A program made the position numbers and the translations under genes. From NCBI GenBank assembly GCA_963767925.1, contig CAVYGB010000008.1:2976001-3040000 (forward strand): a stretch of DNA of 64,000 nt, written 5' to 3'. The first letter of the stretch is position 1; each line of letters starts with the position of its first letter. Below are positions 42,945-47,079 of the stretch, piece by piece. The notes below the pieces were generated by a model, which was given only the letters and a program-made list of their open reading frames with translations, did no database searches and was not told where the DNA came from. This stretch comes from an uncultured delta proteobacterium (GTDB lineage: Bacteria > Myxococcota_A > Polyangia > Fen-1088).

Positions 42945-45266
42945 ATGCGGCGCAGCCGGCGCCGGGTTGCCGCTCCTACCCTTGCCTCCATCGGGCGGGA
43001 CCCGCACGCTGTAGGTCCGGTGCGCACACGCTCCTCGGCGGCTCGGGATCGGATCGGGCGCCCCGCGGATCCCGAGCAGCGCTTCGCCACGGCGCACGCG
43101 GAGATCGATCTGCTGCTGCAGGCTGCTCTGCGGGCAGCCGGCGCGGAGCTGGCGGCCGATGCGGGCAACGAGACGGTCGCGCGCGCCCGGGCCGGGATCG
43201 AGGGGCTGATCGATCGCGGCGGGGCGCCTACCTGCCGGGTGGCGGTGGTGGCGCTGGCCAAGTCGGGCAAGTCCACCCTGGTCAACGCCCTGCTGGGGGC
43301 GGACCTCCTGCCCACCTCCAACGTGCCCGAGACCGCGCAGGTGGTGCGGGTCCGCCACCGGGGGGAGGCCGGGAGCGGCCGCCTGCTCCGGGCGGACCGG
43401 ACGGTAGCCGCAGGCGACGGGGAGATCCGCGCGCACCTCCGGGGGCTCAACCAGGCGCGCCGGGCGCAGGCGCAGGGCGCGGCGCCGGAGCGAAGCCGCT
43501 GCGACGGCACCCCCCTCACCCCTCCCTCTCCCCGCTTCGCGGGGCGAGGGCGAACGGACAACGGTGGGCCGAAAGGATCGGGCGACGGCACCGCCGGTCT
43601 GGACGGGTCCGGCTGGATCGCCAGCGGCGGCGAGCTGGTCCTGGAGGCGCCGCTGCTGGCGATCGCCGATCGGCCGATCGGCGCGCTGCCCTTCGAGATC
43701 CTCGATACCCCCGGGCCCAACGAGGCGGGCGCGGAGGAGCTGCGGGCCGAGGTCGATCGGCTGCTCGGCGAGGCCGACGTCGTGATCTACCTGCTCGACT
43801 ACACGAAGCTGCGAACCGAGGAGGAGCGGGGGCTGTTCGAGCGCCTGCAGCAGCTCCGGCCCGAGCTGCTGGCCCGGATCGGTGAGCGGCTGTTCTTCGC
43901 GGTCAACAAGATCGATCAGGAGAACAGCCGCGGGCTGTCGCAGGCGGAGACGCGCGACTACGTCAGCGCGGCGCTGCGCGAGCAGCTCCCCGGGCTGCGC
44001 CTGGCGCCCGAGCGGGTGCTTCTGCTCTCCGCCCAGCAGGCGCTGCTGGCCCGGCTGGTCCAGGCGGGGCGAGCCGACGCGGGCGCCCTGCGGGACTTCG
44101 CTCGCCTGTGTTTCGGTCTCCGGGGCCAGGCGGGGGCGATCCTCGCGCACTGCCAGCGCCACGCCGGCCCCCTGCTCGCCGACAGCGGGCTGCCCGCGCT
44201 GGAGGAGGTGGTCCTGTCCCACCTGTACGAGGGCCGCGGGCGGATCTTCCTGCAGGCGCTCGGCGACGATCTGGATCGCCACCTGGCCAGCCTGGCCAAC
44301 CACCTGCACGCGACCGCGGGCGCGCTTCGGCTCGAGCAGGGCGCCCTCGGCGTGCAGATCGGCGAGCTGGAGGACGACCGCCGCGCGGCCGAGCAGGCCT
44401 TCTCGGGCCTCGACGAGCTGGCCCGGGGCGCCGCCGATCGCCTCGAGGCCTGGGTGCGCGGGCGGTTCGAGGCGTTCCAGCAGCAGGTCGAGGGCGTCGT
44501 GCGATCGGTCCTCGAGACGGTCGAGGAGGAGCCGGCGGGGAGCCAGCCGGAGCGGGTGGCGGCGCGCCTGGGGGCGGCCGACGCGGCCATCGCCGGGCGC
44601 CTGCGGGTGGCCTTCACGACCTTCTGGCTGGAGCTCGAGCGCGCCGCCTGGCAGCGCCAGCGCGAGCTGTTCGCCGAGATCGAGGCGGCCCTCGCGCCGC
44701 TGGCCGCCGCCATCGAGGCGACGGTGAGCCAGCGGCTCGCGGTGAGCCTGCAGCCGGTGCCCCTGCGCCTGCCGGCACCGGCCCTGGAGGCCCTGCACGA
44801 CGAGGTCGAGCAACGGATCGACGGCCTCCTCGAGCGGCAGGTCCGGCAGGAGACGTCGCGGGAGGCGCGGCGGGTGGTCAACCCCCGGGCCGGCTGGTGT
44901 GGCCAGCGGTACCAGGACATCTCGGTGGAGGTGACCCGGCAGATCGCCCTCTACGGCTTCTCCCGGGACAAGGTGCTGGCCCACTGGCGGGACTGGATCG
45001 GCGCGCGCACCGAGGCGTCGGCGGCCACCGCGAGAGCCATCATCGCCGAGCAGGTGGGGGCCGCCCTCGAGCAGGCGCGCCGCCAGCTCGCCGAACACGG
45101 CGCCGGCTACGCCCGGACCGCCCGTCAGGCGCTGGCCACCTGCCGCCAGGGTGAGACGCGCCGGCGCGAGCGGCTCGGCGCGGTCGAGGCGGCCGGCGCC
45201 CGGGTGGCCGAGCTGCAAGAGCGGCTGGCCCGGTGCCGGGAGTTCATCGCGGCGGGAGAGACATGA
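42945..45266 (+). CDS. Dynamin-like GTPase (CrfC/RdcA-like)
   Basis: G1 ALAKSGKST, G2 LPTSNVPET, G3 DTPGPNE, G4 NKID, LSAQQALLA, long helical stalk; start uncertain (42936-43020). Confidence 0.85.
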   Translation: MRRSRRRVAAPTLASIGRDPHAVGPVRTRSSAARDRIGRPADPEQRFATAHAEIDLLLQAALRAAGAELAADAGNETVARARAGIEGLIDRGGAPTCRVAVVALAKSGKSTLVNALLGADLLPTSNVPETAQVVRVRHRGEAGSGRLLRADRTVAAGDGEIRAHLRGLNQARRAQAQGAAPERSRCDGTPLTPPSPRFAGRGRTDNGGPKGSGDGTAGLDGSGWIASGGELVLEAPLLAIADRPIGALPFEILDTPGPNEAGAEELRAEVDRLLGEADVVIYLLDYTKLRTEEERGLFERLQQLRPELLARIGERLFFAVNKIDQENSRGLSQAETRDYVSAALREQLPGLRLAPERVLLLSAQQALLARLVQAGRADAGALRDFARLCFGLRGQAGAILAHCQRHAGPLLADSGLPALEEVVLSHLYEGRGRIFLQALGDDLDRHLASLANHLHATAGALRLEQGALGVQIGELEDDRRAAEQAFSGLDELARGAADRLEAWVRGRFEAFQQQVEGVVRSVLETVEEEPAGSQPERVAARLGAADAAIAGRLRVAFTTFWLELERAAWQRQRELFAEIEAALAPLAAAIEATVSQRLAVSLQPVPLRLPAPALEALHDEVEQRIDGLLERQVRQETSREARRVVNPRAGWCGQRYQDISVEVTRQIALYGFSRDKVLAHWRDWIGARTEASAATARAIIAEQVGAALEQARRQLAEHGAGYARTARQALATCRQGETRRRERLGAVEAAGARVAELQERLARCREFIAAGET
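43511..43550. repeat. REP-like palindromic element inside the dynamin gene
   Basis: CCCCCTCACCCCT followed by hairpin CCCTCTCCCCGC-TTC-GCGGGGCGAGGG. Confidence 0.6.
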
Positions 45267-46219
45267 CGGCGACCCTCCGCTTCCGCGATCTCACCGGGCT
45301 CGACCCGGGGGGATTTCCCCTGCTGGCCGAGCGGCTGGCGGTCGACGTCACAAGCGCCTTGCGTTCGGCCGAGGCGGGCCTGCGCGGGCTGCGCGGGCGG
45401 ATCTTCCTGCGGCGGCTGTGGGACGTTGTCAGCGGGCAGGGCGGCGAGCTTCAGGGGGCGATCGGCTCGGATCTGGCGGCGGTCCAGCGGGCCACCCTCG
45501 ACATCTTGCGCGAGGTCATGCGGGAAGACGCCCGCACCCAGCACTGCATGAATCGGGTGCTGGTCAACCTGCACGCGATCAACCGCGACCTCGACGCCGT
45601 CGCGGGCGGGCTGGCCCGCGCCGAGGCGGGCACCCGCGAGCTGCGGCGCGAGCTGTTCGAGGCGCTCGGATCGGAGGCGGTGCGCCTGGCCGGACAGATC
45701 GAGCGGCTGCGGCGCGAGCTGGTGCGCGAGTCGACGGTGCGGCACCTGAGCGAGCTGTACCGGGCGGGCGAGCTGCACCGGGGCGCAGGGCCCACCCTGG
45801 CGGCGGCGATGTTCCTGGCGGCGGTGGGCGCCGCCTGCTGGGACCCCGAGCCGGAGCGGCGGGCCTGGGTGCTGTCGAGCTACCGGCGGGTGGCCGAGGC
45901 CATCGTGCGCGAGCGGCTGTCGAGCCGGCCGCAGCCGACCGAGGTGGCGGTGCTGGAGGCGGTCGAGTCGACCGAGGACCCGCTGCGCGAGCCCCTGCTG
46001 TACCTGAGCGAGAACCGCGGGCCCCACCTGGCCACGGTGAGCGCCCTGCTCGAGCGCAAGCTGGCCGGCCTCGGCAACGCCGAGAGCAACGCCCGCGACG
46101 CCCTGGCGGTGGCGCGCGCCACCCGCGACCCCGAGCGCCACCTGGAGAGCCACCTCATCCGGCCGATCGAGCTGGCGCAGGCCCTGGCCCGCGAGCTCGA
46201 GCCCGAGGGCGCCGCGTGA
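45263..46219 (+). CDS. YjcZ/RdcB-like coiled-coil protein
   Basis: ATGA-coupled to the dynamin; FPLLAERLAVDV, LRRLWDVVSG, ELYRAG and C-terminal ELAQALAREL resemble recalled YjcZ motifs; same gene order as crfC-yjcZ. Confidence 0.6.
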   Translation: MTATLRFRDLTGLDPGGFPLLAERLAVDVTSALRSAEAGLRGLRGRIFLRRLWDVVSGQGGELQGAIGSDLAAVQRATLDILREVMREDARTQHCMNRVLVNLHAINRDLDAVAGGLARAEAGTRELRRELFEALGSEAVRLAGQIERLRRELVRESTVRHLSELYRAGELHRGAGPTLAAAMFLAAVGAACWDPEPERRAWVLSSYRRVAEAIVRERLSSRPQPTEVAVLEAVESTEDPLREPLLYLSENRGPHLATVSALLERKLAGLGNAESNARDALAVARATRDPERHLESHLIRPIELAQALARELEPEGAA

Positions 46220-47079
46220 GGACCAGCTTCCCGGCGCTGGCCCTGGCGGCGGGCGGGGCCCGGGGCGCCTACCAGGCGGGGGCGCTGCTCGCGCTGGCCG
46301 AGGCGGGGCTGCGCTACCAGGTGGTGGCGGGTAGCAGCGTCGGCGCCCTCAACGGGGCCTTCGTCGCCCAGGGGGATGGATCGCCGGCGCACCTGGCGGG
46401 GCTGTGCGCCTGGTGGCGGCGCCTCCCCGGGGCGAACCTGGTGCGGCTCGCGAAGCCGGGACAGGCCGACGTCCTGCCCGCCTTCCTCGACCCCGGGCCG
46501 CTGGCCCGCCTGCTCGACGGCGCCCTCGACTACGGCCGCATCGGCCGGGCGGGGGTGGGCCTGGTGATCGCCGTGTTGACCGAGGTGAGCCCCCCGCTGG
46601 ACATCGTCAGCGCGCCCTGGCGGCGGGCCAGCTACTTCGAGGCCAGCGCGCTGTCGGGCGGCGAGCTGCGGGCGGCCCTGCTGGCCGCCGCGGCCATCCC
46701 CCTCGCCTTCCCCGCGCGGACGGTGCGGGGGCGGCGGTACGCCGACGCGGGGCTCGTCGATCCGCTGCCGGTGCAGGCGCTGTACCGGCGGGGGGAGCGC
46801 CGGATCGTGGCGGTGCTGCTCTCGGACCGGGCGCCCTGCGATCGGGCCGACCTGCCCGGCGCCACCCTGCTGCAGGTGCGCCCCGCGCTGCCGCTGGACG
46901 ACGGCCTGCTGGCCAGCTTCGACTTCACCCGGCCGACCATCGAGCGCCTGATCGACCGCGGCCACGCCGACACGAGGGCCCAGCTCGCCGAGGTGGAGAC
47001 GCTGGCCGACGGCCTGGTCGAGCTGCACGAGGCCGGCCGGATCAATCGAGCCCTGGCGGATACCCTGCCCCGCCGCTGA
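46216..47079 (+). CDS. Patatin-like phospholipase
   Basis: GTGA-coupled; LAAGGARGAYQAG, nucleophile GSSVG, AAAIP..FP, YADAG. Confidence 0.9.
   Translation: MRTSFPALALAAGGARGAYQAGALLALAEAGLRYQVVAGSSVGALNGAFVAQGDGSPAHLAGLCAWWRRLPGANLVRLAKPGQADVLPAFLDPGPLARLLDGALDYGRIGRAGVGLVIAVLTEVSPPLDIVSAPWRRASYFEASALSGGELRAALLAAAAIPLAFPARTVRGRRYADAGLVDPLPVQALYRRGERRIVAVLLSDRAPCDRADLPGATLLQVRPALPLDDGLLASFDFTRPTIERLIDRGHADTRAQLAEVETLADGLVELHEAGRINRALADTLPRR

Follow-up and report, generated by a model that had tools for sequence, protein, structure and literature searches.

The window analysed here, a stretch of 64,000 nucleotides from the genome of an uncultured delta proteobacterium of the Myxococcota type (contig CAVYGB010000008.1), carries three overlapping genes on its plus strand. 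They code for a dynamin-like GTPase (gene A), an all-helical protein with remote similarity to RdcB/YjcZ (gene B) and a patatin-like phospholipase (gene C). The architecture of this trio and the homology assignments of its members can be regarded as nearly certain. The best explanation, which we hold with somewhat better than even confidence, is a three-gene effector module in which translation of A and B is coupled to that of a catalytically competent patatin and which probably has a role in conflict. We consider it reasonably probable that this module would act as a GTPase-gated phospholipase effector. What we observe are the structure of the genes, their homologies, the conservation of the trio and the variety of effector domains among relatives; what we infer is how C would be gated, by which signal and through which contacts, and that the trio would serve in defence.

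Gene A (773 residues) covers positions 42945..45266, gene B (318 residues) positions 45263..46219 and gene C (287 residues) positions 46216..47079. The fraction of guanine plus cytosine (GC) at third codon positions (GC3) is 0.93 for A, 0.96 for B and 0.97 for C, while it is only 0.51-0.55 at second codon positions (GC2). In a genome with a GC content of about 75% this contrast represents a strong coding signal. Spurious open frames are abundant in a window of this composition; at the locus, the coding signature is confined to the frames of A, B and C, and the open reading frames (ORFs) that compete with them in antisense orientation have a lower coding score. The start of A is uncertain, with in-frame candidates at GTG 42936, ATG 42945 and GTG 43020.

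At the junction between A and B (45254..45266), a Shine-Dalgarno-like GGGAGA (45254-45259) is followed by an ATGA stop/start overlap (45263-45266). At the junction between B and C (46205..46219), the motif GAGGG (46205-46209) precedes a GTGA stop/start overlap (46216-46219). An earlier note on this DNA had described three coupled genes with these two overlaps, and both are present when the sequence is read directly. The three-gene arrangement exceeds chance, because the same order recurs in another genome of the phylum (G332) and in enterobacterial RefSeq records, and because A and B are also joined by ATGA in a metagenome contig (L093). A promoter/terminator scan, which is uninformative at such a GC content, detected no sigma-70-like promoter and a single terminator-like site, which is weak and internal. 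Transmembrane-like segments were found in none of the three proteins.

The protein encoded by gene A has a G domain, followed by a helical stalk and a C-terminal domain. The dynamin motifs reported for it in the earlier note are intact: G1 is represented by ALAKSGKS (residues 103-110), G2 by T130, G3 by DTPG (254-257) and G4 by NKID (321-324). In 40 relatives of A, residues K106, G108, K109, E129, D254-G257, N321 and D324 are invariant, and T130 is nearly so. Pfam Dynamin_N matches with an E-value of 5e-13 (49.8 bits versus a cut-off of 27). Among the NCBIfam models, the CrfC equivalog scores best (1.9e-13), with a weaker match of the DynA model (3.8e-6). When a profile built from 40 A-type sequences was compared to E. 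coli RdcA with hhalign, a probability of 99.8 was obtained (E 2.3e-29, 328 columns), and the match spans the motifs DTPGPNEAG and LDYTxLK and the first stalk helices. We consider A a relative from the RdcA/CrfC branch but no orthologue, because its score against the CrfC equivalog (49.7 bits) is far below the cut-off of 1146 bits. The PADLOC models LeoBC (1.5e-12, 45 bits) and LeoA (1.8e-9, 35 bits) match A partially, in the region of G domain and stalk. The likeness to LeoA and DynA, which had been noted before, is thus borne out by the PADLOC and NCBIfam matches for the G domain and not beyond it. No 19-residue window in A is transmembrane-like by hydrophobicity (maximum 1.33), and a paddle is not evident. 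The operon has one dynamin-like gene, and the organism's own genome holds no paralogue of A elsewhere, all other matches to A being restricted to a low-complexity insert.

The assignment of gene B was far less straightforward. Its product starts with a motif-bearing region, continues as a long coiled helix and closes with a compact C-terminal domain that is also helical; the conserved N-terminal region can be written as AERLAIDxTxALRxAExGLRxxRxRxLLRRLWxxxTGxG. The protein has no match to Pfam or NCBIfam at E<=0.1 and none to PADLOC, and it was not recovered even at E<=10 when the whole genome was searched with the YjcZ model PF13990. Within the B family, this model matches 7 of 39 members, all below threshold (best E 0.0083). 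Profile-profile comparison proved to be more sensitive. The B-family profile (A3) matches the RdcB-family protein of an enterobacterial plasmid trio with an hhalign probability of 95.7 (E 9.8e-9, 131 columns), and an alignment of four RdcB sequences which includes that of E. coli K-12 with a probability of 95.3 (E 2.2e-8, 164 columns). The top three clusters among the ESM Atlas neighbours of B are YjcZ/RdcB (0.94-0.95), which we take as a lead only. B is thus a remote relative of RdcB/YjcZ, via its N-terminal residues up to about 160-190. The earlier description of the middle protein as YjcZ/RdcB-like is upheld at the level of profiles (probability 95-96) and finds no backing from the Pfam and NCBIfam models or from K-12 RdcB taken alone.

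The B family is small. A word-indexed search of 5.8 billion proteins returned 4 relatives, and a search of 1.84 billion cluster representatives with a hidden Markov model (HMM) returned 65 at E<=1e-3, of which 48 reach E<=1e-10. An AlphaFold model of B reaches a predicted local distance difference test value (pLDDT) of 86.4 when 39 sequences are supplied and is poor (pLDDT 62) with five sequences. Foldseek detected nothing in the PDB at E<=0.001 for this model, and a wide VIA-align search gave generic helical matches only (Z<8), so that no fold was assigned. Two proteins (P0122 and P0127), found as weak but library-wide significant matches to the B profile, consist of a B-like N-terminal module, a zinc ribbon and a dynamin GTPase. 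These fusions hint that B-type modules may work together with dynamins.

Gene C codes for a patatin which, judged by its motifs, is catalytically intact, as had been claimed. Pfam Patatin (PF01734) matches residues 8-189 with an E-value of 8.4e-27 (95.1 bits versus a cut-off of 27.7). The oxyanion loop GGARG (13-17), the nucleophile motif GSSVG (39-43, with S41) and the motif DAG with the catalytic aspartate (177-179, D177) are all retained, and G13, G14, G17, G39, S41, G43 and D177 are invariant over 41 relatives. The phospholipase-effector models of PADLOC reach E-values of only 0.028-0.046 for C. The complex of B and C with residues 430-773 of A was also predicted; the scores obtained (0.01 and 0.00 versus a mark of 0.32) speak neither for nor against binding.

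Conservation in other genomes, on which the earlier note had let its proposal depend, was found in three settings: in G332, in L093 for A and B, and in the enterobacterial trios. G332 belongs to the same phylum but to another family and has a GC content of 60%. Here, A runs off one contig and resumes on another, where B and the patatin gene follow in the same order as in the window. Identity to the window proteins amounts to 37% for the C-terminal part of A, 42% for B and 44% for the patatin. Around the G332 trio lie other genes than in the window, namely scpA/scpB, genes for a pseudouridine synthase, a phosphoesterase and a hemerythrin, and an additional truncated dynamin-like gene. On the metagenome contig L093, A (207-2303) and B (2300-3148) overlap by ATGA, after which the contig ends. 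In addition, eight A relatives match C relatives in the exact size of their longest contig (6491, 13848, 81514, 23118, 6303, 4849, 12601 and 604508), and the same holds for one pair of B and C relatives (18474) and one pair of A and B relatives (5458).

The truncated dynamin-like gene of G332 (L178:10252-11532) codes for 426 residues with a G domain only and is located directly upstream of A, overlapping its start. We read it as a partial tandem paralogue; the window has no such gene.

The distribution of the trio is patchy. In a search of close genomes, B was found in one of 41, namely the organism's own genome (G000), and neither in the same-genus genome nor in the 39 others. The 24 same-family genomes searched also gave no B. 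Among 401 genomes sampled from the phylum, three matched the B-family profile, namely G000, G332 with a strong and G064 with a weak score; two matched the A profile (A2) at E<=1e-20. With the sample drawn around a metagenome-assembled genome of the Polyangiales, G332 and G733 gave the identical match, which places the window's genome in the phylum of that assembly. Pattern scans of genome and metagenome contigs for relatives of B returned none, and scans based on A returned mostly distant dynamins, chiefly cyanobacterial, with 21-27% identity. The B- and C-family HMMs were run over 169 loci, made up of 158 from the A-based scans and the earlier ones. Besides the loci of the window itself (L001 and L002), the B model matched only L093 strongly and L120 weakly (1.9e-4), and the C model matched only the window's own loci and L063, from Cognaticolwellia. 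L063 has the same three-gene layout and was rejected as a further copy, its middle protein being tied neither to B nor to RdcB (probabilities 13.8 and 0.1).

An equivalent layout occurs in Enterobacterales. RefSeq annotates 'dynamin family protein', 'RdcB family protein' and 'patatin-like phospholipase' in this order on the E. coli plasmid NZ_CP072541.1, with 4-bp overlaps and between insertion sequence (IS) elements. In E. coli JJ1886 (NC_022648.1) a copy of the trio, also with 4-bp overlaps, is located on the chromosome, beside IS21, DUF932 and antirestriction genes. RdcB-like genes occur in 44 plasmid records. By megablast, the plasmid version of the trio is found in 6 of 5426 complete E. 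coli genomes. By blastn, at least 1168 of the 5426 contain a place which covers at least 80% of the trio with 60-80% identity and for which the three products are annotated. The layout had been described in the earlier note as one not recognised as a named system. It is indeed unnamed in PADLOC, but it is not new, since RefSeq annotates it widely in Enterobacterales. The enterobacterial trio has no PADLOC match at E 1e-5 or better, and the window trio has generic GTPase-domain matches only. Genes for a dynamin, RdcB and a patatin have been named together, in passing, on an E. coli island in the account given in PMC13182975.

The window trio and the enterobacterial trios share the gene order, the 4-bp overlaps and the homology of all three proteins. 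However, the sequences are very distant. A shows 30% identity (E 1e-22), B is linked by hhalign (95.7%), and C shows 28% identity (E 2e-29) over nearly the full length, which is still far closer than the RssA model. NCBI assigns the enterobacterial B, but not the window B, to the RdcB family. Furthermore, the enterobacterial trios reside on plasmids or islands beside IS elements and antirestriction genes, whereas the window trio is chromosomal and lies among metabolic genes in DNA of about 75% GC. The window trio is a very divergent, deep branch of a recurring unnamed module, from a Myxococcota-type genome. What is new in the myxobacterial branch is the divergent lineage itself, together with the putative effector exchange around A.

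It became evident that the closest relatives of A carry effector-type domains of their own. A TIR domain is attached C-terminally in P0031 and P0032 (from Pyxidicoccus trucidator) and N-terminally in P0058, and P0036 has a C-terminal phosphorylase-type PNP_UDP domain. These TIR- and PNP_UDP-bearing relatives are 26-35% identical to A over 82-95% of its length. An N-terminal CHAT domain is found on the fragment P0062 (35% identity over 26% of A), and A relatives of the Saprospiraceae type carry an N-terminal EAD11; in the one Saprospiraceae genome tested, no B-family gene was detected. In a quick maximum-likelihood tree, dynamins with a linked patatin occur throughout the clade, and the TIR/PNP group and the EAD11 forms are nested among them. 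This tree has 55 rows (LG+G4, SH-aLRT support only, the pair of RdcA and the plasmid-trio protein as outgroup), leaves out seven rows, P0062 among them, and came with warnings about long branches and skewed composition.

The interchange of modules on one nucleoside triphosphatase (NTPase) scaffold is a pattern that has been described for conflict systems (PMC7159879), although the words 'dynamin', 'patatin' and 'EAD11' do not occur in the main text of that paper or of its 2021 sequel. The presence of TIR, PNP, CHAT or EAD11 in place of a linked patatin is a putative conflict-system signature. The myxobacterial branch points to an ancient trio, whose GTPase has changed its effectors repeatedly.

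Two further observations concern relatives of A. In a metagenome-assembled genome of the Saprospiraceae, a protein which combines TIR with a Bax inhibitor-1 (TMBIM) domain is encoded (L014:2674-3996, minus strand) near an EAD11-dynamin gene, which is an unusual pairing of cell-death-related domains. Relatives of A also occur in eukaryotes (P0049, P0054, P0055, P0059, P0060 and P0061), namely in green algae (Cymbomonas, Chlorella, Astrephomene) and in Physarum. They are 26-45% identical over 32-90% of A, and several are located on large scaffolds. This suggests a transfer between bacteria and eukaryotes.

The closest characterised counterpart of A and B is the RdcA (YjdA/CrfC)-RdcB (YjcZ) pair of E. 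coli K-12. There, too, a dynamin-like GTPase of about 740-770 residues is followed, with a 4-bp overlap, by a helical partner of about 300 residues. The G domain and the proximal stalk are homologous, and the partners are homologous at profile level over their first 164-180 residues. According to PMC13463826, RdcA is a sensor of GTP: a fall in GTP, with (p)ppGpp working against the inhibition exerted by GTP, sends RdcA to the membrane, where its C-terminal domain binds and activates the diguanylate cyclase DgcE. The same account describes RdcB as being in a constitutive complex with RdcA and as required for larger assemblies and for activation. This GTP-sensor logic offers a model for the trio. 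There are also clear differences. The output of RdcA/RdcB is an unlinked GGDEF enzyme, DgcE, whereas the window has a co-transcribed patatin. The window A is only about 26-30% identical, within the G domain only, and B stays below the YjcZ and NCBIfam thresholds, with its C-terminal half unaligned.

By analogy with E. coli RdcA/RdcB, we propose that A and B would form a switch, in which A senses a change in nucleotide state or a cue linked to an invader. A would then move with B to the inner membrane, and the membrane-bound A/B would recruit or unleash C, which would hydrolyse membrane phospholipids at the inner membrane. Such a patatin would resemble CapV of type I CBASS (cyclic-oligonucleotide-based anti-phage signalling system), where a patatin phospholipase acts last, damaging the membrane as the effector of a sensor module (PMC12480259). 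Unlike in CBASS, no cyclase of the CD-NTase (cGAS/DncV-like nucleotidyltransferase) type and no other gene for a nucleotide second messenger was detected by Pfam among the examined ORFs neighbouring the trio, and activation of C would be mediated by protein rather than by a cyclic nucleotide. The trio also resembles the NTPase-centred conflict systems outlined by Kaur, Burroughs, Iyer and Aravind in 2020 (PMC7159879), in which an NTPase switch is combined with variable effectors, as are the A relatives with EAD11, TIR, CHAT and PNP. The window trio differs from them in having no effector-associated domain (EAD).

We consider biological conflict, either abortive-infection-type defence or another form of triggered self-damage, and not housekeeping, the most likely setting of the trio. 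This is favoured because A relatives carry TIR, PNP, CHAT or EAD11 and because the distribution of the module is patchy and partly mobile. A role in defence proper is plausible, although we would stop short of calling it probable.

Several observations weigh against this interpretation. The neighbours of the trio in the window are genes for a P-type ATPase, an acetate kinase, a phosphoketolase, a secreted histidine-rich protein, an S8 peptidase and a TcA-like protein, and PADLOC gives only generic-domain matches (kinase, OmpA/MotB, AAA+, subtilase) for 22 neighbours in the window. A defence-gene neighbourhood, for which the earlier note had called as a check, was not found: no defence genes flank the trio in the window or in G332, the two contexts from the phylum, while the enterobacterial copies lie beside IS elements and antirestriction genes. 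The known role of RdcA/RdcB is physiological, in the control of cyclic di-GMP, and not immune. The co-location of trio genes as read from contigs of the same size is indirect. For B, the family profile gave no match to K-12 RdcB alone, and the C-terminal half cannot be aligned to RdcB. The literature searched holds no study in which a trio of this kind was tested.

To these points must be added a peculiarity of A itself. Between G2 and G3, the window protein has an insert of 46 residues (about 176-221), which by its insert states against the family profile is lacking in the relatives. The core of this insert is encoded by a GC-rich imperfect palindrome that resembles repetitive extragenic palindromic (REP) elements and lies in frame within A (43512..43564, plus strand). 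The palindrome, with the core CCCTCTCCCCGC..GCGGGGCGAGGG, has a length of 45-60 bp and forms a hairpin. A 151-bp query gave 78 matches in the organism's own genome, 77 of them elsewhere and on both strands. Most copies are 83-98% identical over 45-60 bp, and they often occur as nearby inverted pairs. Copies are also numerous in the same-genus genome (G001). That the organism's own A carries such an element in its G domain counts among the points against the interpretation; the frame stays open. The insert may be tolerated, because RdcA has an insertion of its own at the same site.

The strongest competitor is a physiological switch, in which the A/B pair would read GTP or (p)ppGpp during starvation or development and would turn on the lipase for membrane lipid turnover, for the mobilisation of fatty acids or for autolysis during development, and it would have no part in protection from phages. 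The only characterised relatives, RdcA/RdcB with DgcE, act in such a way as far as described in PMC13463826. The trio lies among housekeeping and metabolic genes rather than defence genes in both genomes of the phylum, and in the window nothing next to it points to a mobile element (the GC content is even, and 30-64 kb contains no tRNA). Because of these housekeeping neighbourhoods and the physiological role of RdcA, we keep it as a serious rival, even if we judge it unlikely. A core function is hard to reconcile with the patchy distribution, with A in 2 of 401 genomes and B neither in the same-genus genome nor in the 24 of the same family. The TIR, CHAT, PNP and EAD11 domains of the A relatives are typical of conflict systems, and the enterobacterial versions are either plasmid-borne and enclosed by IS elements or neighbours of IS21, DUF932 and antirestriction genes.

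A membrane-remodelling or repair dynamin of the classical type (DynA, LeoA, IniA) would tubulate or seal membranes, while the lipase would edit lipids at the site of repair. The Dynamin_N domain and the GTPase-region matches of LeoBC and LeoA in PADLOC agree with this, and DynA is a dynamin that acts against phage. The best family for A is, however, RdcA/CrfC and not DynA, and the lack of a transmembrane-like window and of an evident paddle does not fit. A is also encoded by a single dynamin gene, whereas in Eleos or DynA the dynamins come in pairs or are fused. Eleos, which consists of LeoA plus LeoBC, shares with the trio a GTPase of the dynamin superfamily, and its models match G domain and stalk of A. 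Yet these matches are partial and low-scoring, the window operon has one dynamin gene and not two or three, and the Eleos models include neither the RdcB-like partner nor the lipase that are both present in the trio. We regard a remodelling dynamin as distinctly improbable. Still less can be said for C as an exported antibacterial or anti-eukaryotic effector of the ExoU or Tle type, perhaps tied to the TcA-like locus, with the adjacency to A and B being incidental; this we consider extremely improbable. Patatins are common secreted effectors, and a gene for a TcA-like protein of 3397 residues lies 3.4 kb downstream. But C is joined to B by a stop/start overlap, the gene order is kept in G332, where the flanks examined have no Tc gene, and in E. 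coli, and two minus-strand genes, one of them the convergent S8 peptidase gene, stand between C and the Tc-like gene.

The surroundings of the trio were also annotated. The TcA-like gene (50437-60630, plus strand) codes for a Tc toxin complex subunit with PA14, ABC_toxin_N, neuraminidase-like and TcA C-terminal TcB-binding domains. The S8 subtilase gene lies in a minus-strand region (47042-50154), is convergent with C, with the 3' ends overlapping by 38 bp, and is preceded on its strand by a gene for 434 residues without family match. Upstream of A, a gene on the plus strand (41392-42843) codes for a secreted-looking protein of 483 residues, with a signal-peptide-like N-terminus and tandem repeats of the HEEHAQ type rich in His, Glu and Gln, for which Pfam has no match. 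This gene was considered as a fourth member and rejected: it is separated from A by a gap of 102 bp, is kept without the trio in the same-genus genome and is absent from the G332 locus. In the same-genus genome, its homologue (65% identical) is found on a short contig (2837 bp) without adjoining trio genes.

Further upstream (38100-40647, plus strand), a phosphoketolase appears to be split over two frames. The first ORF, which ends at 40481, covers XFP_N, XFP and XFP_C up to position 35, and an overlapping ORF (39994-40647) covers XFP_C positions 33-202. The GC3 signal changes frame near position 40000, and either a frameshift or an error in the assembly accounts for the split. A stretch from about 40650 to 41390, which separates the phosphoketolase from the gene for the secreted protein, has no clear coding signal in any frame (GC3 0.6-0.78) and a strongly negative GC skew.

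A more far-reaching idea, about which we are doubtful, is that the RdcA-like dynamins around A make up a clade of switches in immunity or cell death, whose killing modules can be swapped for one another. These modules may be a linked patatin with an RdcB-like adaptor, a fused TIR, PNP or CHAT domain, or EAD11 adaptors, and the clade may reach from Myxococcota, Bacteroidota and Proteobacteria to green algae and Physarum. It would represent the prokaryotic counterpart, and possibly the source, of the dynamin-family GTPases of innate immunity, with RdcA/RdcB as a domesticated offshoot.

If the trio is indeed a GTPase-gated phospholipase effector, a dynamin-type GTPase would set off a membrane-destroying enzyme instead of remodelling membranes itself. 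The newly described role of RdcA as a GTP-sensing trigger would be extended to a new output, and the NTPase-effector architectures known from immunity would gain a dynamin-based class of sensors. Although it has no name, the module is common, being annotated in at least a fifth of the complete E. coli genomes. The function of a single trio would thus inform many annotations as 'dynamin family', 'RdcB family' and 'patatin'.

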